Positions 16,039-53,061 are shown, numbered from the stretch's first letter. The stretch: 64,000 bases of DNA from an uncultured Pseudomonadota bacterium (GCA_902785935.1 CADAAN010000006.1:4309-68308), one strand, 5' to 3'. The notes: generated from the sequence alone by a model not told the origin. Translations and numbers: made by a program.

Positions 16039-16236
16039 TTGACTTTTATTTTAAAGTATGCCATAATCAAAAGCGTAACCAAAATGGTTATGGTGTTTAG
16101 ATAACACATTCGAGTTAAGGCTCCTTTGAAAGAGGAGTTGTTGATATAAGGCAATTTTTGCTCGAATAAGACAAACTGTAACTCGACAGTTATCTAGCTC
16201 CTCCATTTTGAGATTTTTCAAGATGGATTTTTTTTT
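16039..16236 (+). promoter_or_regulatory. Leader family A, copy A1: promoter + ~160-nt structured leader + terminator
   Basis: TTGACT (16039-16044), 17 nt, CATAAT (16062-16067). The conserved GTAACCAAAATGG starts at 16075. Covarying helices are described in the findings. The hairpin TCCATTTTGA/TCAAGATGGA plus T9 ends at 16236, 30 nt before the LRR gene. Confidence 0.7.
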
Positions 16237-16265: not shown

Positions 16266-17324
16266 ATGAAGAAATATGTTTGGGTTTTTGGACTTATTTT
16301 AAGTTATAATGCACAAGCTTATGATTATAATGATTGTTTTGGTGCAAGCGGATGTCAGCCCTGTCCGAATAGTACGGACGGCAAATGTTTTTATGCTGTT
16401 GAAGGCAGCAAAATGACAATTTATGGCCCGACATCAACCGAACAAAATGCAGATGGCAGCTTAAAAGAAACAACATCGATTCCGCGTTATGCCTTTACCA
16501 ACAGCGATAATGCCAGCAATTTGCCGGAAAATATCACTTCTCTTGAAATAACAGGTAATATCACAACCGTTGAAGGTTATGCTTTTTGCTCTGCCCCTCT
16601 GACAAATGTACAATTTCCTGAGACACTTGAAACAATATCGGAATTGGCTTTTTGGAACAATAATTTATCACAAATCAATTTTCCTAATTCGCTTAAAAAT
16701 ATAGAAGAAGGTGCTTTTAATTGGAATCCATTTTCAGAAATTAATTTACCCGACGGATTAATGACGCTGGAGGGGTTAACAGGTGTTCCCCTGGGGCATG
16801 TTGTTATTCCGGATTCGATTGCAGAGGTTAAAGATGCGATTTTTTCTTCAAACTATCGTTTGCAATCATTGGTTGTCGGCGCAGACACAATGCTTGGCAA
16901 TATTTTTACCTACACAACAGGGGCTGTTAGTGTGCAATTTGATAAATTCAAGATGTTTTGCGCAGAAAATAACGGCTCATGCACAACAGCTTTGCAAAGT
17001 GCCGGTGCAACACAAGAACAAATTGCGCAAATACTGATAAGTTATACAAAAGATGACGCAACAGGCGTTTATCAAACAAGTGACGGAAAATATTATGCCG
17101 ATGTCAATTTGATGGCAAGACAAATGGCTTGCGAAAATAAGCAAAGCTGTGAAATTGCCAGTGCTGATATTCGGGCAGGTCGTCCTTTTGATATGAAAGG
17201 AAAATCTTACGCATCTGTCGATGATTTCATTCAAGGAAAATATATTCCAAAGCGTATCTATACCATCGATGAAGCCAATCATGTCGCGGGCAAGACAAAC
17301 ACTTTTACGATTCGGTATCGATAG
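16266..17324 (+). CDS. Secreted BspA-type leucine-rich-repeat protein with conserved C-terminal tag
   Basis: Signal peptide (...SYNAQA-YD), Cys-rich N-terminus, LRR_5-like repeats (ITSLEITGNITTVEGYAF...). C-terminus KRIYTIDEANHVAGKTNTFTIRYR. Confidence 0.85.
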   Translation: MKKYVWVFGLILSYNAQAYDYNDCFGASGCQPCPNSTDGKCFYAVEGSKMTIYGPTSTEQNADGSLKETTSIPRYAFTNSDNASNLPENITSLEITGNITTVEGYAFCSAPLTNVQFPETLETISELAFWNNNLSQINFPNSLKNIEEGAFNWNPFSEINLPDGLMTLEGLTGVPLGHVVIPDSIAEVKDAIFSSNYRLQSLVVGADTMLGNIFTYTTGAVSVQFDKFKMFCAENNGSCTTALQSAGATQEQIAQILISYTKDDATGVYQTSDGKYYADVNLMARQMACENKQSCEIASADIRAGRPFDMKGKSYASVDDFIQGKYIPKRIYTIDEANHVAGKTNTFTIRYR

Positions 17325-20593: not shown

Positions 20594-21493
20594 TTATCTG
20601 TACCTGATTTTGACCGAATTGACTTTGCCTGCGATGGCATTTGCTTCATCGATGGTGTAGATACGCTTTGGGATATAATCTCCTTTTTGCATCGCGGAAA
20701 TTGAGGCATAAGTTTTCTCACCGATACGATATTTCCCGTCAGGTGTCTTAGAATAATGAATAATTTTCGGGTTTTTACCCGTTTGAAGCGCTATTCTTGA
20801 ACATACCTCTTCGGAAGCCGCACAATATAGTTTTTGAAGGTTTGTGTTTGTAAAAGCTTCATCATCAATATTTGTCACACTATTCGGAATAACAAGTGTT
20901 TCAAGTGTTGAAATATCAGCAAGAGACGTCCAACCGATTGAGGTTACACCTTCAGGGATTTCCAGATTTTTAAGTTTTGTTCCGACAAAAGCTCTATCAG
21001 GAATTTCTGTTTGAGCCTGCCCAAGCATCAAATAATCTATTTTTGTTGCCGCAAAACTCCAAGCACCGACATATTGAAGATTTAGAGGTGTATTAATTTC
21101 TTTTAATAAATCTGCACCCTGAAATGCAGCACCGCCAATTTGTTCAATAGAATCCGGCAAATCAATACTGCTGATTTTTGTATAAGCAAGTGTATAACTA
21201 CCGATATTGGTTAAAGAATCCGGCAATGAGACACTTCGAATAGTTTCAAGTTTTTCAACCCATGGTGTTCCCGGCCTTTGGTTTTTAGAATCCCATTCGT
21301 AATTTGTCATTTTTCCGACAGGTGCATTTTCATCTTTGGCTTCAATTGAAAAAAGACCTGTCTGCTCATTTAGTCTGGCAAGGCAATTAGCGCCGCAATC
21401 CCAACAATTGATGTTTAAATCATCACCGCAAGTATTGACTGCTTTAGCTTGAGAGCTCATTGTCAGTAAAAAAAATAAAATCCATTTTCTCAT
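20594..21493 (-). CDS. Secreted BspA-type LRR protein with conserved C-terminal tag
   Basis: Signal peptide (..SSQAKA-VN), Cys-rich N-terminus, LRR_5 repeats. C-terminus KRIYTIDEANAIAGKVNSVKIRYR. Confidence 0.85.
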   Translation of the reverse strand: MRKWILFFLLTMSSQAKAVNTCGDDLNINCWDCGANCLARLNEQTGLFSIEAKDENAPVGKMTNYEWDSKNQRPGTPWVEKLETIRSVSLPDSLTNIGSYTLAYTKISSIDLPDSIEQIGGAAFQGADLLKEINTPLNLQYVGAWSFAATKIDYLMLGQAQTEIPDRAFVGTKLKNLEIPEGVTSIGWTSLADISTLETLVIPNSVTNIDDEAFTNTNLQKLYCAASEEVCSRIALQTGKNPKIIHYSKTPDGKYRIGEKTYASISAMQKGDYIPKRIYTIDEANAIAGKVNSVKIRYR

Positions 21494-21511: not shown

Positions 21512-21711
21512 AAAATAAAAAACCGTTTAAGATAAACCAAAAACGGAGGAGCTAAACGAACTGCACTAAATCAGTTAAGCTTATTCGAGGTATTAACCCT
21601 TATATCACTTACTCCTCTCTAAAGGAGTATATTTTTAGTGCAAGTGTCGTTTAAACACCGCAACCATTTTGGTTACGCTTTCATTTAAGCATATATCAAA
21701 ATACTTGTCAA
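21512..21711 (-). promoter_or_regulatory. Leader family A, copy A2: promoter + structured leader + terminator
   Basis: Minus strand: TTGACA (21711-21706), 17 nt, TTAAAT (21688-21683). GTAACCAAAATGGTTGCGGTG starts at 21676. The terminator CCGTTT/AAACGG plus T-run ends near 21512. Confidence 0.7.
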
Positions 21712-29406: not shown

Positions 29407-30540
29407 CTAACGATATCGAATCGAGAAGGTGTTTGTTTTGCCCGCCACCTGATTCGCCTCATCGACGGTATAAATGCGCTTGCCCTCATAGCCGATAATC
29501 TTGCCATCTTCATAAATGGCCGTACTTCCATCGGCTAATTTTTTAGAGTATTTAACTGCCATAATGTCAGCAAAGTCATTCGGGTCAAGCCCTGCCGCCT
29601 CAATATTTCTTTGGCACTTAGCGACAGATCCGGCACACTGTATTTCTATGTTGCTTATATCAAGGTTATCGAAAGGAGAATAAATTCTGTCATAACTAAA
29701 AAATACTTCACAGCTATCCATTTCATATGTACAGCCGGCTTCTAAAGCTTTACTATAAAGTTGTGTATAATCTTCTTCGCTCATATGGCTACGGTTATTT
29801 TCTACATTTTCTAAGCTGTAAAAATCATCTTCTATCACATATCTGCTGAATGCAAAATTAAAATCATCTGATACTGTGATTCTTTCAAGATTTTTAATAC
29901 CCTTAAAAGCACCTTCATCAATATACTCAACCGAATCTGGCAATGTAAGGCTTATCAAACCTGACATACCCATAAAAGCATCTCTCTCTATATTTGTAAC
30001 CGAATCCGGAATAGTAAGATTAGTAACGTTTCTCATATACGCAAATGCAGTATCTTCAATATTTTTCAGTGAATTTGGTAAAGTTAAATTTGTAACAGCA
30101 GTAACATCATAAAATGCACCGCTACCGATATCTTCCACCGCATTACCGATTGTTAAATTTGTTACGTTAATCATATTACTAAAAGCACGATCACCAATAG
30201 AAACCACAGAATCTGAAATTTCAATGGATGTAGCATTTGTAGCTTCTCTAAAAGCATTATTTCCAATTGTCGTTATACCTTTTTCTACAACAACAGAGGT
30301 GATATCTTCGCGAATAGCATGCCATGGCATACTGTAATGATACCAACCAGAATAATTCTTATTTTCAAAATCATCCATAGCACCAGTGCCGGAAATAGTC
30401 AAAATACCGCTATCCGTATCCAAGCTCCAATAGCAATTCTCGCCGCATTTTTTGTAGCCGCTGTTTGTACCAATAATATCTGCTTTGACGCCTGAGGATA
30501 ACAAAATAAATCCCATCATCAGAATACATTTATTTTTCAT
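29407..30540 (-). CDS. Secreted BspA-type LRR protein with conserved C-terminal tag
   Basis: Signal peptide (..SSGVKA-DI) and about 7 LRR_5 repeats (TNLTIPDSVTNIERDAFMGM...). C-terminus KRIYTVDEANQVAGKTNTFSIRYR. Confidence 0.9.
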   Translation of the reverse strand: MKNKCILMMGFILLSSGVKADIIGTNSGYKKCGENCYWSLDTDSGILTISGTGAMDDFENKNYSGWYHYSMPWHAIREDITSVVVEKGITTIGNNAFREATNATSIEISDSVVSIGDRAFSNMINVTNLTIGNAVEDIGSGAFYDVTAVTNLTLPNSLKNIEDTAFAYMRNVTNLTIPDSVTNIERDAFMGMSGLISLTLPDSVEYIDEGAFKGIKNLERITVSDDFNFAFSRYVIEDDFYSLENVENNRSHMSEEDYTQLYSKALEAGCTYEMDSCEVFFSYDRIYSPFDNLDISNIEIQCAGSVAKCQRNIEAAGLDPNDFADIMAVKYSKKLADGSTAIYEDGKIIGYEGKRIYTVDEANQVAGKTNTFSIRYR

Positions 30541-30564
30541 AATTTTTTCCCTTTTAAAGATGTT

Positions 30565-30864
30565 AATATAAAAAAGTTTAACCGCGCCTTTTTAAGTGCG
30601 GCGGGGAGTGAAGAAATCATGTAAACCTAAATGACTCTTGCAACCTTTAGAATAACTCTTGTACATCCTTTGCAAGCTCCCCAACCAAAACTTTGGGGAT
30701 AATCGGCATTTTATACAAAAACACCTTCAAAACAAACAGTGTTATCCGTCACTGAGGTTTACAAAAGCTTCTTCAAAGCTCCGCACCCAATACATAGGCA
30801 CTAAATGATAAGATTTCTCCCATCACTTAAGATTTATTAGAACACGTTTTGATTTAATTGTCAA
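30565..30864 (-). promoter_or_regulatory. Leader family B, copy B1: promoter + ~255-nt structured leader + terminator
   Basis: Minus strand: TTGACA (30864-30859), 17 nt, TCTAAT (30841-30836). Conserved blocks and covarying helices are shared with 41695-41952 and 61258-61513. A hairpin plus T-run lies near 30571-30606. Confidence 0.7.
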
Positions 30865-30946
30865 ATAAAAAAGCAAAATTTTATGTACTTTTACTTTTTT
30901 TTGAAGTATAGTAATGCCAGTTGAGGAAATATTTGGAAAAAAATAA

Positions 30947-40815: not shown

Positions 40816-41673
40816 TTAGCGATACCGAATCGAAAAAGTGTTTGTCTTGCCTGCAACTTGATTGGCCTCATCGATGGTGTAAATGCGCTTTGGTGCGTAA
40901 TGTTGATTGTAAATATCATTTGGGGAACTGTAAAACCTTCCGTTATAATAATAACCTGTTGAGTATTTTTGATAAAATTTAATTTTATCGCCAATTTCTT
41001 CATCGTCTAAAAGAGCCTGACAACTGGCATTTGTGTCTTCGCAATAAATAGCCAAAGATTCTGACAATGCTTTATTTATGGAATTAGTAAGCATTTTTTT
41101 TGTAATCATGGTCGAACCGGATATGGTTAAAGATTTCAATTCCGTGCCGCCTAATGTCCAATCTTCATCTTCAAGAATAACATCTTTGGGTAATACAATA
41201 TCTTCAACTTTTGTACGATTAAAATTAGCCCCTCCGATAAAAGTCAGACTATTTGGTAAATTAATTTTTTCAAGTGATTGAGTATCATTAAAAGCACCAC
41301 CCGAAATCTTTTGAAGTCCTTCGGGTAAAACAGCCTCTCGCAAATCAAACAAATATTCAAAAGCAGAAGAACCAATTGATTTAAATATTTTATCACTTGA
41401 TTCGTTTTCGATAACGACTTTATAAATTTGTGAAGAATAGGCTCCCCAATCGGCTGTATTATGGCACCATGGGTCACAGCTGTGACTATAATTTTTCATA
41501 TCACCATAACCTTTAATGGTTAATGTATTCGTGTTTTTATCAAGTGTTGCTGTACAACTATCATTTGAGGTTGCCGCACAGTCAAATGTACAAATATCAC
41601 TGTTATCACAAAGTGTATCAGCATATGTATTAAAAGCCGTAAATATACAAAAAATATAAATTACTTTTCTCAT
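40816..41673 (-). CDS. Secreted BspA-type LRR protein with conserved C-terminal tag
   Basis: I placed the true start at ATG 41673 (MRKVIYIFCIFTAFNTYA-DT, with GGAGAA 7 nt upstream). The 67-codon N-terminal extension in the track ORF runs through the conserved leader RNA. C-terminus KRIYTIDEANQVAGKTNTFSIRYR. Confidence 0.85.
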   Translation of the reverse strand: MRKVIYIFCIFTAFNTYADTLCDNSDICTFDCAATSNDSCTATLDKNTNTLTIKGYGDMKNYSHSCDPWCHNTADWGAYSSQIYKVVIENESSDKIFKSIGSSAFEYLFDLREAVLPEGLQKISGGAFNDTQSLEKINLPNSLTFIGGANFNRTKVEDIVLPKDVILEDEDWTLGGTELKSLTISGSTMITKKMLTNSINKALSESLAIYCEDTNASCQALLDDEEIGDKIKFYQKYSTGYYYNGRFYSSPNDIYNQHYAPKRIYTIDEANQVAGKTNTFSIRYR

Positions 41674-41694
41674 ATCTTTTCTCCAAAATTTATT

Positions 41695-41987
41695 AAACGA
41701 AAAAACCACTCTAAAATGAGCGGCGGGGAGTAAAAGAATCATGTAATGGAAAATGACTTCCGTAACCTTTAGGTCAAAACCTTGAACATACGCCACGGAC
41801 TCCCCAACCAAAATATCGGGGATAAGCATTGTTTTAAAATAAAAAAACAACACTAAAACAGCGTTATCTCTCACTGTCCATTACAAAAGCTCTTTTAAAG
41901 CCCCGCACCCTTTTCGGGTACTTGATAGAAAAAGCCAAAACCTTCCTATCTGATTTATATTATTACATATCAAAAACATCTTGTCAA
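41695..41987 (-). promoter_or_regulatory. Leader family B, copy B2: promoter + structured leader + terminator
   Basis: Minus strand: TTGACA (41987-41982), 17 nt, AATAAT (41964-41959). Conserved blocks as in B1 and B3. The terminator CCGCTC/GAGTGG plus T5 lies near 41697-41726. Confidence 0.7.
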
Positions 41988-42025
41988 GAAATTTTAAAAT
42001 ATTTTAATACGTGATTTGGCTGTGA

Positions 42026-45086: not shown

Positions 45087-45986
45087 TTATCGATACCTTA
45101 TTTTGAAAGAATTAACCTTGCCCGCGACGGCATTCGCCTCGTCGATGGTATAAATGCGGATATCGGCACGAGCAGGAACAGATGGCAAGACAGATGGAGA
45201 AACAGTTCCTGATGCTGAAGCAATTTTTGCTCTGCAAGAAGTCTCCGTTTCGCAACCCTCTTCCGTTCCTCCCAACATCATTTTTGCTGCTGAAGAGTAA
45301 TAATTATCACCAACTTTATATACCCCATCTTCTTTAGTATATTGTTCAATTTTTGACGTCCCATGGCCTTTACAAATATTAACATCTTCGCAAAAAAGTT
45401 TTGTGTTGCTGGCAAACGGAAAGTTAACAATTGTTGTTCCTCTGCTAATAATGACATTGTTCAAGGATTCATTTTGAAAGCTACTTCCAAAAGCATCCTG
45501 ATTAATTTTCGTTACACCGCTTAAATCAATATCATGCAGGTTGGTTGTATATGTAAAAGCGCCACTTCCAATTTCTTTAACTCCTGTAAAATCCACACTC
45601 GACAAAGCAGATCGCGAAAAAGCGGTTCCGCCGATTGATGTAACACCGCTTGCAAAAGCAAGTGAGGTTACACCTTGAGGAAGCATTGATGTCCCATAAG
45701 TGTCATCTGCAAAAGCTGATCTCGGTACTTTGTATGTGAGATTGCCGTTTGAATCTGTTGAAGTAATTGATGACCCCTGAATGGTCATTTTTCCGTTATC
45801 AATAGTGTAGTATGTGAGCATATGAGAGGCATAGCTACTGGCTTGCGACAAACATCCTTCGCCATAAGTTGAAACACAAGCCTGACAAAATGTGTTCCCT
45901 TCAGGGCACTCAATTAAAGCAATGGAAATTTTTGAAAATGAAACTGTTGCTACTAATGCCGAGGTTAAAAAAATATTTCTAGTCAT
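45087..45986 (-). CDS. Secreted BspA-type LRR protein with conserved C-terminal tag
   Basis: N-terminal signal-like segment, Cys-rich region, LRR_5 repeats (VTSLAFASGVTSIGGTAFSRS...). C-terminus IRIYTIDEANAVAGKVNSFKIRYR. Confidence 0.85.
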   Translation of the reverse strand: MTRNIFLTSALVATVSFSKISIALIECPEGNTFCQACVSTYGEGCLSQASSYASHMLTYYTIDNGKMTIQGSSITSTDSNGNLTYKVPRSAFADDTYGTSMLPQGVTSLAFASGVTSIGGTAFSRSALSSVDFTGVKEIGSGAFTYTTNLHDIDLSGVTKINQDAFGSSFQNESLNNVIISRGTTIVNFPFASNTKLFCEDVNICKGHGTSKIEQYTKEDGVYKVGDNYYSSAAKMMLGGTEEGCETETSCRAKIASASGTVSPSVLPSVPARADIRIYTIDEANAVAGKVNSFKIRYR

Positions 45987-46020: not shown

Positions 46021-46212
46021 AAAAAATCACTTCAGAAGATATCCGAAGTGGGAGCTAGAAAACTGTATACATTCAGTCAGACTTATTCGACATTTCAAAA
46101 CGCTTATATCATCTACTCCCGGTAAAAGGAGCGATATGTATAAGGTGTTTTCTAGACACCGCAACCATTTTGGTTACTTTTTTATTTTCACATAAAAAAC
46201 GTAGCTTGTCAA
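46021..46212 (-). promoter_or_regulatory. Leader family A, copy A3: promoter + structured leader + terminator
   Basis: Minus strand: TTGACA (46212-46207), 17 nt, GAAAAT (46189-46184). GTAACCAAAATGGTTGCGGTG starts at 46177. The terminator CACTTCGGA/TTCTGAAGTG plus T6 ends at 46021. Confidence 0.7.
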
Positions 46213-52252: not shown

Positions 52253-52843
52253 TTAGTAGTCCCCTCTGATTACATGATAAAACCGACAGCTATCTAAACT
52301 TGTTTCACATGCCTGACAGCCCTCAATGATATCAGACATTTTGACCTCCGTAATACCTCCTGTAGGCCAATATATATCCTTACCGCCCACCTCTATCAAT
52401 CCGCCTGTCCACCATTCAACCGGGACGGCATTTTCCCATCCTGCAGAGGCAAAAGCAATACACGATTTTGAATCGGTGAAATGGATAACAAATTCACCCT
52501 GAACATATGAACCACCGCTATCATAAAAATCCATATTCAGCGTTCCTATCGGAAGTTTGCAAGCCTCGTCTCCATTAAGATCCGTTGTTACTTGACAATC
52601 CGGTAAAAGCCCGTATTGAATTAAATCTTCGGCATCACGAATCTCAATACCTTCTCCCCAGCCTTTTTGCTCCAACTCCATAAAGCGTTGAAGAATTTGA
52701 TTATATGTGTCAATTGTTTGATTCATTTTGTATTTAAACATTGCGGCAGAATAACCTTTGAGTGCGCCCGCCGACAACACACCGACAATAGCCAACACGC
52801 CCAGCATTTCAACCATACTTCTACCTATTTCATTAATTTTCAT
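52253..52843 (-). CDS. Type IV pilin / pseudopilin-like protein
   Basis: The N-terminus MKINEIG-RSMVEMLGVLAIVGVLSAG has a prepilin-type signal with Glu at +5, followed by a hydrophobic helix. Confidence 0.75.
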   Translation of the reverse strand: MKINEIGRSMVEMLGVLAIVGVLSAGALKGYSAAMFKYKMNQTIDTYNQILQRFMELEQKGWGEGIEIRDAEDLIQYGLLPDCQVTTDLNGDEACKLPIGTLNMDFYDSGGSYVQGEFVIHFTDSKSCIAFASAGWENAVPVEWWTGGLIEVGGKDIYWPTGGITEVKMSDIIEGCQACETSLDSCRFYHVIRGDY

Positions 52844-52863: not shown

Positions 52864-53061
52864 AAAAAAAATTCCGTTTTATATAACCAAAAACGGAGGA
52901 GCTAACTAACTGCCATTGTACAGCTTGCTTTATTCGCGCATCACTAAAATACCTTATATCAGCAACTCCTCATCAAGGAGCTATACAATGGATGTGTTAG
53001 TTAAACACCGCAACCATTTTGGTTACATCCTGATTATTTCATACAAAAGCATAAAAGTCAA
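52864..53061 (-). promoter_or_regulatory. Leader family A, copy A4: promoter + structured leader + terminator (pilin-like gene)
   Basis: Minus strand: TTGACT (53061-53056), 17 nt, AATAAT (53038-53033). GTAACCAAAATGGTTGCGGTG starts at 53026. The terminator CCGTTTT/AAAACGG plus T8 ends at 52864. Confidence 0.7.

Follow-up and report, generated by a model that had tools for sequence, protein, structure and literature searches.

In phages P1 and P7, the c4 antisense RNA of immI acts on the ant leader of its own operon. A second small RNA, sRNA-Xcc1 (RF02221), is annotated in many pathogens and phages, including Xanthomonas, Xylella, Stx phages, Neisseria, and Aeromonas, and to our knowledge no function has been established for RNA of the Xcc1 type since 2010. 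It has been detected as a free RNA of 88 nt (PMC2996969). Five copies form an array in Xylella (PMC12189769); in Xanthomonas integrons it precedes symE (bioRxiv 10.1101/2025.06.18.660453), and in APSE the gene for an ORF6N protein (bioRxiv 10.1101/2020.03.17.996009). The element described here was found in a contig of an uncultured Pseudomonadota bacterium (GCA_902785935.1 CADAAN010000006.1:4309-68308), of which a stretch of 64 kb (the window) was analysed. Literature searches found no described motif of such a kind, and a search of the window with Rfam 15 (4227 models, including c-di-GMP-I/II, T-box, PyrR, and c4) returned only two tRNAs at the gathering score. When the exemplar copy alone was searched at E<=10 the matches were noise, the best being PyrR with 21.9 bits against a gathering score of 54.

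Four regions of the window encode a folded RNA that is real and strongly conserved, each copy preceding a surface-protein gene of a rumen alphaproteobacterium; the LRR protein assigns the window to a scaffold from a rumen metagenome. A covariance model (R1), built from the four copies in the fold termed State A, recovered them from the window at 118-141 bits (E 1e-32 to 1e-39), with the next match at 15 bits; no fifth copy was found in the 64 kb, where nothing else exceeded 15 bits. A chance origin of the four-copy similarity is excluded. The features of the exemplar (21k) and of the other three copies (16k, 46k, and 52k) are as follows.

21512-21711, minus strand: copy 21k (exemplar), read from the sequence
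21711-21706 and 21688-21683, minus strand: promoter-like TTGACA and TTAAAT, 17 nt apart, by direct reading
21676, minus strand: G, putative transcription start
21545-21676, minus strand: structured element (R1 117.8 bits; same fold in the whole-leader MFE structure; covariation)
21676-21660, minus strand: P0
21659-21634, minus strand: P1 5' strand
21629-21610, minus strand: P2
21612-21617, minus strand: alternative helix 5' arm GAGGAG, the P2 3' strand (covariation; fold of the 3' domain)
21609-21577, minus strand: P3, with loop GAUAUAAG at 21606-21599 and CGAAUAA at 21587-21581
21574-21572, minus strand: junction CUG
21570-21548, minus strand: P1 3' strand
21546-21551, minus strand: alternative helix 3' arm CUCCUC, the P1 end and first terminator-stem bases (covariation; fold)
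21512-21546, minus strand: intrinsic terminator CCGUUU ... AAACGG, then U6 A U4 (RNAfold of the flank)
21504-21501, minus strand: RBS GGAG
20594-21493, minus strand: gene for a 299-aa secreted BspA-type LRR protein ending ...RIYTIDEANAIAGKVNSVKIRYR (LRR_5 E 1.7e-29)
16039-16236, plus strand: copy 16k, with promoter 16039-16067, element 16075-16204, and terminator 16202-16236 (R1 140.9 bits)
16266-17324, plus strand: LRR protein gene downstream of 16k
46021-46212, minus strand: copy 46k, with promoter 46212-46184, element 46177-46048, and terminator 46050-46021 (R1 139.7 bits)
45986-45087, minus strand: LRR protein gene downstream of 46k
52864-53061, minus strand: copy 52k, with promoter 53061-53033, element 53026-52895, and terminator ~52897-52864 (R1 136.6 bits)
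52843-52253, minus strand: pilin-like gene downstream of 52k

The copies have a common plan comprised of a promoter, a 5' hairpin (P0), the covarying helix P1a/P1b, a three-way junction with P2 and P3, and a terminator. Much of this plan had been proposed in a sequence-only reading of the window, and the analysis bears it out. The promoter, TTGAC(A/T) followed after 17 nt by a -10 box, is present by reading in all four copies; a consensus promoter scanner lists three of them (16039-16067 on the plus strand, 46212-46184 and 53061-53033 on the minus strand), the 21k promoter being absent from the list because TTAAAT fails the rule for position 2. The near-invariant 5' string GTAACCAAAATGGTT is exact in every copy, followed by AT in 16k and by GC elsewhere, and a match to the P0 string with one mismatch, GCAACCAAAATGGTT, lies on the minus strand at 7957-7971, inside ORF 7542-8303; as R1 gives only 10 bits there, this match is attributed to chance. 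RNAalifold on the four copies reproduced the proposed two-segment helix with 50 pairs, 17 of them carrying compensatory changes, and the internal hairpin CUCC..GGAG is seen in the window copies. The invariant junction strings, TGATATAAG ... CGAATAA, have four matches against 0.01 expected by chance, and TAGCTCC leads into a hairpin and T-run terminator in all four copies. Further elements were absent from the earlier reading. The long helix reaches further down, to GGUG:CUCC at its base; a covarying helix of 4-5 bp (P3) surrounds both invariant strings; and a small variable hairpin (P3b) caps P3. Because P3 encloses them, the invariant strings face each other in one internal loop, GAnAUAAG / CGAAUAA. 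The intrinsic terminator begins 0-3 nt past P1, that of 21k being missed by a simple scanner because its loop is too long. In the window copies the promoter scanner listed no promoter-like site in the stretch that separates the terminator from the start codon.

The element is not confined to the window. A loose pattern (GATATAAG N6-30 CGAATAA) run on genome contigs gave a list of matches that were mostly due to chance, among which R1 recognized only three true copies (L041, L076, and L086), all in Alphaproteobacteria MAGs; P0 in these is of quite different sequence and has GNRA-like loops. A specific pattern, which fixed GATATAAG, CGAATAA, CTG, and CAGTT, was run on metagenome contigs and matched at least 120 loci, largely from human gut and rumen. 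On those loci R1 identified at least 117 copies, at least 110 of them distinct, in human-gut and rumen contigs and Alphaproteobacteria MAGs. A search of relatives by covariance model with a tally of downstream genes, which the sequence-only reading had put forward as a check, thus yielded at least 110 distinct copies, with XRE-type HTH proteins the commonest downstream. The specific pattern had no match in viral contigs, and a phage origin was rejected on that result.

The folded structure is strongly maintained across the family. In the family alignment of at least 110 distinct copies, 92.8% of cells are pairing compared with 67.3% in shuffles, and changes on both sides are found at 35 of the 41 pairs. 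Among the copies listed, the State A covariation score is 0.639 compared with 0.05-0.09 in slid-partner controls (alignment A4 was fitted to the State A model). There are at least 46 distinct versions of P0; among the copies listed its pair 1:29 is GC in 68 and GU in 31, and pair 4:26 is UG in 21 and GU in 15. As P0 pairs through many G:U combinations, it is a hairpin of the RNA rather than a palindrome of the DNA, and since all other helices covary as well, the choice between RNA element and DNA operator that had been raised earlier falls to the RNA. The invariance of GATATAAG, CGAATAA, CTG, and CAGTT is partly a matter of ascertainment, because the collection pattern fixes them; the 15 copies from outside the pattern nevertheless all have CGAATAA and CTG, with GAnAUAAG as the other strand of the loop. 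Attenuation by a leader peptide was considered and rejected: an ATG in P0 opens ORFs of 6-19 codons in the window copies, and the L041 and L076 lineages are without this ATG.

The genes that follow the element fall largely into two classes. Among the 117 copies listed, 58, plus three incomplete, precede a small protein of ~60-165 aa, and 15 precede secreted LRR, Cys-rich, or pilin-like proteins of the class found in the window; another copy comes next in 16, and for 25 the contig ends first. The small proteins belong to the XRE/Cro-C1 HTH type (~60 of the 117 copies listed) and are divergent, with a mean column identity of 24%, a variable recognition helix, and only two near-invariant residues, in a motif like LLxFYGKxIxIELVD. 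Their genes are monocistronic and lie in unrelated chromosomal neighbourhoods; tblastn of the 64-kb window with the small XRE gene gave no match. Across the family the ORF starts ~50-65 nt past the element, which is co-oriented with the downstream gene in every case examined. In the window, three of the genes after these leaders encode BspA-type LRR proteins with the C-terminal motif RIYTIDEANxxAGKxNxxxIRYR in common. The gene at 52253-52843 (minus strand), the only non-LRR gene behind such a leader in the window, encodes 196 aa with an N terminus like that of a type IV prepilin (GRSMVEMLGVLAIVGVLSAGAL) and has no Pfam or NCBIfam match.

Several side observations concern these proteins. The window encodes five paralogous secreted proteins, at 16266-17324 (plus strand) and at 20594-21493, 29407-30540, 40816-41874, and 45087-45986 (minus strand), which have in common a C-terminal tail of ~25 aa, (K)RIYTI(D/E)EANxxAGKxNxxxIRYR, and in most cases a Cys-rich N-terminal region. 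LRR_5 matches the three that were scanned, namely those behind the leaders described above. The tail, which is also present on rumen contigs L152, L157, L160, and L221, is matched by no Pfam or NCBIfam model and by its sequence looks like a sorting or anchoring signal. A regular-expression search of the window's ORFs for GGDEF, EAL, and similar motifs found none, a span of only 64 kb being uninformative in this respect.

Some contigs carry the element as tandem arrays of two to four complete units, each with promoter, element, terminator, and RBS-like remnant, at a period of ~255 nt (L122 389-1297, minus strand; also L178, L200, L201, L154, L169, L150, and L128), and the small XRE gene comes after the final unit. 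In L122, which has four units, two have identical scores (57.6 bits) and equal length. Upstream of this array, at 1386-1626 in the minus-strand reading, there is a long run of CTTCCA/CTTCCT hexamer repeats, which probably encodes an acidic repeat protein on the opposite strand. A type III toxin-antitoxin system of the ToxIN kind, for which short tandem RNA repeats on one transcript, a terminator, and an endoribonuclease toxin gene would be expected, was rejected: the units here are ~255 nt long with their own promoter and terminator, and the downstream protein is of the XRE-type HTH class.

A hairpin with T-run lies 0-3 nt past the terminal CUCC in 95 of the 96 distinct contexts among the copies listed, in agreement with the earlier description of a promoter-proximal leader with an overlapping terminator. 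That description had also held that the 3' GCUCCUCC could compete with the P2 5' arm for the AGAGGAG strand, and the bases flanking GGAG and the terminal CUCC do covary. The GGAG of the P2 3' strand thus has two alternatives, the CUCC of the P2 5' arm and the terminal CUCC, and the base triplet just before GGAG covaries with the triplet just after the terminal CUCC (GA/UC, GG/CC, GU/AC, GC/GC, and AG/CU are examples; in one GC-rich variant GGCG/CGCC changed jointly). In an alignment of excised segments joined by spacers (A6, 62 distinct contexts), pair 21:35 of this alternative helix is GC in 34, AU in 16, UA in 7, GU in 3, and CG and UG in 1 each, and is unpaired in none of the 62, and pair 20:36 is GC in 41, AU in 15, and GU in 3. 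The covariation score of the alternative helix in A6 is 0.321 compared with 0.149 in shuffled alignments, none of 500 of which reach it, and 0.035-0.19 in slid controls. The number of extra pairs is 2.73 for cognate and 1.24 for non-cognate combinations, with no value as high in 5000 permutations. P2 absorbs the same extension changes mainly by U:G and U:A pairs.

The alternative helix is incompatible with P2 and with the base of P1, and by topology also with a closed P1, and its 3' arm takes in the bottom pairs of the terminator stem. In the fold that contains it (State B), CUG and CA, which are invariant but unpaired in State A, are paired. The minimum free energy structure of the full leaders is State A plus terminator (-48 to -64 kcal/mol), whereas the 3' domain alone folds to State B with a terminator 1-3 bp shorter. 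State A is the more stable by 15-20 kcal/mol, and in silico blocking of the P1 5' strand alone leaves P2 and the full terminator ahead of the alternative helix; therefore State B needs help. Pairing between P0 (CCAAAAUGG) and the 5' arm of the terminator, suggested earlier as part of an antiterminator, is found in three window copies (-9.4, -5.4, and -5.2 kcal/mol) but does not extend across the family, where cognate duplexes, at -7.13 kcal/mol, do not surpass non-cognate ones, at -6.87 kcal/mol (p = 0.09). Duplexes of the terminator arm with the element were no better than those of shuffled arms (-9.3 versus -9.6; -7.6 versus -8.5), and a P0:terminator antiterminator was rejected. The pairing is specific to the window's lineage, and duplexes with any part of the element revealed no other conserved antiterminator pairing in the family.

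The 3' domain in State B leads back to sRNA-Xcc1. RF02221 has no match in the window at its gathering score (53 bits) and none at E<=10 on the exemplar, but it matches the same 3' half of four family members below threshold (21.8-30.6 bits). In the RF02221 alignment the outer stem is the alternative helix, hairpin A is P3 (AUACAAUA / GAAUAA), and hairpin B is CUG/CAGU. Six Xcc1 elements were taken from plasmid and phage records, all six confirmed by Rfam at 69-86 bits. A covariance model (R2) built only from 3' domains of the leader family in the alternative fold (alignment A8) found all six, and a seventh, Xcc1-like element in a Neisseria locus, in the right place and on the right strand (16.9-32.6 bits, E 7e-7 to 0.01; next match 9 bits). 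R1, the State A model, found none of the genuine Xcc1 loci, and the relation is therefore confined to the 3' domain in State B. By these reciprocal sequence and structure matches, the 3' domain is a distant, extended relative of sRNA-Xcc1 without being a member by the Rfam criterion. The earlier statement that the element could not be matched to a known family thus stands as regards Rfam families at gathering score, but not for the 3' half in its alternative fold.

The Xcc1 loci contain a further element that may correspond to the 5' half of the leaders. In five of the six loci (L244-L248), ~40-140 nt upstream of Xcc1, there is a conserved small terminated RNA-like element that ends ...GCGG...CCCG(U/A)CAG(A/C)...GCGGUUUUUUU; at the Neisseria locus (L243) a different terminator-like hairpin lies upstream. 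Rfam families had no match in these upstream elements at E<=0.01. At the two loci tested, L243 and L244, the upstream regions contain short complements to Xcc1 hairpin B and the junction, and their duplexes with the Xcc1 3' half have energies of -39.0 (shuffles -25.7 +/- 3.2) and -41.7 (shuffles -34.2 +/- 3.4) kcal/mol, respectively. The upstream element may be a c4/immI-like RNA partner of Xcc1, and these two loci suggest that the complementary arm is a separate RNA in Xcc1 loci and fused in cis in the leader family. The genuine Xcc1 elements lie upstream of a BRO family gene, of ant in Aaphi23, and of an ORF annotated as 'antitermination' in an Stx phage; one Xcc1 plasmid examined has a Desulfovibrionales host. 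The second Xcc1-like element of the Neisseria gonorrhoeae locus L243, at 1410-1480 on the plus strand, is degenerate (Rfam 33.9 bits, R2 21.3 bits) and has its own terminator; it lies directly upstream of an ORF that starts MSIQTFSFNRF and looks Bro-N/KilA-N-like.

The window also holds a second, different long leader, designated family B, at 30541-30870 and 41780-41990 (both minus strand), upstream of ORFs 29407-30540 and 40816-41874, the products of which end ...IRYR. The two copies share a promoter and GGGTGCGGrGCTTTrAAnAGCTTTTGTAA ... CAGTGAnnGATAACnCTGTTT ... TTATCCCCnAnnTTTTGGTTGGGGAG. The 30k copy ends ...CACTCCCC right before a terminator-like hairpin, which would give an outer pairing GGGGAG:CUCCCC as in the leaders described above. 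Family B has no Rfam match, and R2 gives weak matches (E ~0.6) within or beside both copies.

Building on the observed family, the covariation in both sets of helices, the adjacency of the terminator, and the relation to Xcc1, we give about an even chance to the reading of each copy as its gene's 5' leader, functioning as a cis-acting two-state transcription attenuator. State A, which is far more stable, would be the default: the 5' half (GGNG and the 5' strands of P1a/P1b) would zip onto the 3' half to form a ~20-bp helix under the P2/P3 three-way junction, the terminal CUCC would be held at the base of P1, and the terminator would form immediately 3', such that transcription stops and a fully structured RNA of ~160 nt is the product. 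If P1 were not formed or were opened, the 3' half would refold into the sRNA-Xcc1 architecture (State B), in which the P2 3' strand NNN-GGAG would pair with CUCC-NNN, NNN being the bottom terminator-stem pairs near the U-run. P3 and its invariant loop would be retained, and the invariant CUG and CAGU would make a small hairpin. With the base of the terminator stem lost, termination would be reduced and the LRR, pilin-like, or XRE gene transcribed. The trigger favoured would act by recognising the invariant Xcc1-type loop or by holding one of the arms, the A-rich 5' or the U-rich 3' one, and would be a conserved cellular factor or a small molecule rather than the fast-evolving XRE protein encoded downstream. 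What we infer from these features is that the element acts in cis on termination, that the gene is off by default, and which way the switch turns.

The main rival to the attenuator is a functional terminated RNA: a stand-alone, trans-acting sRNA gene of the Xcc1 type, working by base-pairing, through Hfq, or as a factor sponge, with the downstream gene served by terminator leakage and the 5' arm a built-in cis-antisense lock on the active 3' domain. Taken together, sRNA and lock are a serious but doubtful proposition. The alternative helix takes away only 1-3 bp of the terminator, which speaks against the attenuator, and every unit has its own promoter and strong terminator, which in arrays of two to four units at ~255 nt (L122, L178, L200, L201) a purely cis-acting leader would not need. 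The five-copy array in Xylella (PMC12189769) and the accumulation of genuine sRNA-Xcc1 as a free 88-nt RNA (PMC2996969) point the same way, as does the U-rich stretch beside the terminator that is exposed in State B. Nevertheless, the LRR and pilin-like genes of the window are without another promoter-like site and have their RBS 25-50 nt past the T-run, the orientation matches that of the downstream gene in every case examined, and the P1 arms differ completely between copies, so that no common seed sequence is evident. A classical metabolite or second-messenger riboswitch, in which the State A three-way junction and invariant loop form the aptamer and the ligand picks the fold, appears unlikely. 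It would account for the covarying helices around invariant unpaired bases, for two mutually exclusive folds adjoining a terminator, and for many copies per genome before adhesin-like, pilin-like, and regulator genes, a gene set which that of cyclic-di-GMP riboswitches resembles. It sits poorly, however, with a ~20-bp P1 that forms without ligand and with the lone XRE regulator as the dominant downstream gene, which suggests no metabolite (the adhesin-like proteins name no ligand either). Furthermore, no riboswitch family known to Rfam matches, and in phages and integrons the homologous Xcc1 domain precedes ant, bro, and symE genes (bioRxiv 10.1101/2025.06.18.660453).

Autoregulation, by which the small XRE-type protein encoded downstream would bind the RNA and set termination, and in the rumen lineage would also govern the LRR and pilin-like genes, is quite improbable. 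RNA and small monocistronic HTH gene do form a recurrent two-part module in unrelated neighbourhoods, an arrangement analogous to that of PyrR-type regulons; the XRE proteins, however, are very divergent (24% mean column identity) beside an invariant RNA core, the 64-kb window contains no such HTH gene, and XRE domains as a rule bind DNA. Hardly credible is the remaining explanation, that the conserved 5' palindrome serves as an operator in the DNA and the remainder owes its conservation solely to recent duplication. It draws on AACCA-AAA-TGGTT at the transcription start, identical in the four window copies, whereas in the family the P0 stem changes its sequence entirely (at least 46 versions) and yet pairs, often through G:U, which would break a DNA palindrome, and the other helices of the four copies have fully diverged but are still paired.

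The family described here, which Rfam 15 does not contain, is a large group of structured RNAs with very strong covariation support, and human-gut and rumen metagenomes are rich in it. New here are the covarying second helix, which excludes P2 and the base of P1, and the match of the 3' half to sRNA-Xcc1 in the alternative fold. Since two competing folds are both under selection, the element is a directly testable switch. It may be a means by which uncultured gut Alphaproteobacteria gate families of secreted LRR proteins. The link to an RNA annotated in so many pathogens and phages suggests that Xcc1 is a leader or target domain under the control of a complementary upstream RNA. More widely, and only tentatively, the element could be a self-contained conformational switch of a class not described before, in which the Xcc1-type domain is locked by its cis-antisense arm. 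Release by a signal, be it a small molecule, Hfq, or some other conserved factor, would turn on the genes for adhesin-like surface proteins, a pilin-like protein, and XRE regulators in gut and rumen Alphaproteobacteria; by extension, the Xcc1 elements of phages, integrons, and plasmids would be the target half of RNA-RNA control of ant, bro, and symE and not free-standing virulence sRNAs.

The leader family resembles riboswitches and attenuators (PyrR, T-box, c-di-GMP-I/II) in being promoter-proximal, with mutually exclusive helices, a terminator, and many copies per genome, and it shares with riboswitches in general a conserved structured domain, covariation, and invariant unpaired bases, along with mutually exclusive structures of which the alternative helix overlaps the terminator base. 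It differs from them in its unusually long P1 and in a competing helix that overlaps only the bottom 1-3 bp of the terminator. As in c4/immI, a structured segment that lies before a tightly controlled regulator gene has its complement in an RNA segment further upstream; here, however, that complement is the P1 5' strand, joined in cis, and the pairing runs for ~20 bp without a break within one molecule. The genes downstream are other than ant or icd, and the Rfam c4 families give no sequence match. The likeness to Xcc1 lies in the 3' 75 nt in the alternative fold: an outer stem (N)GGGAG ... CUCCC(N), hairpin A with the internal loop AUA(C/U)AA / GAAUAA, a second small hairpin, and a U-rich junction UUUnnAG followed by (A)CC and U's, with detection reciprocal between RF02221 and R2. 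Both RNAs form tandem arrays, and both precede, in the same orientation, small genes whose products are nucleic-acid-binding regulators or toxins. The inner hairpin is CCC-GNAA-GGG in Xcc1, whereas its counterpart in the leader family is variable in sequence and length and absent in some copies. Xcc1 has Beta- and Gammaproteobacteria as hosts, where prophages, integron cassettes, and plasmids carry it, and the genes that follow it are ant, bro, and symE; the leader family is chromosomal, belongs to gut and rumen Alphaproteobacteria, and is followed by XRE, LRR, or pilin-like genes, and it alone has the extra 5' half (P0, P1 5' arm, and P2 5' arm) that pairs with the Xcc1-like domain, together with a separate canonical terminator.
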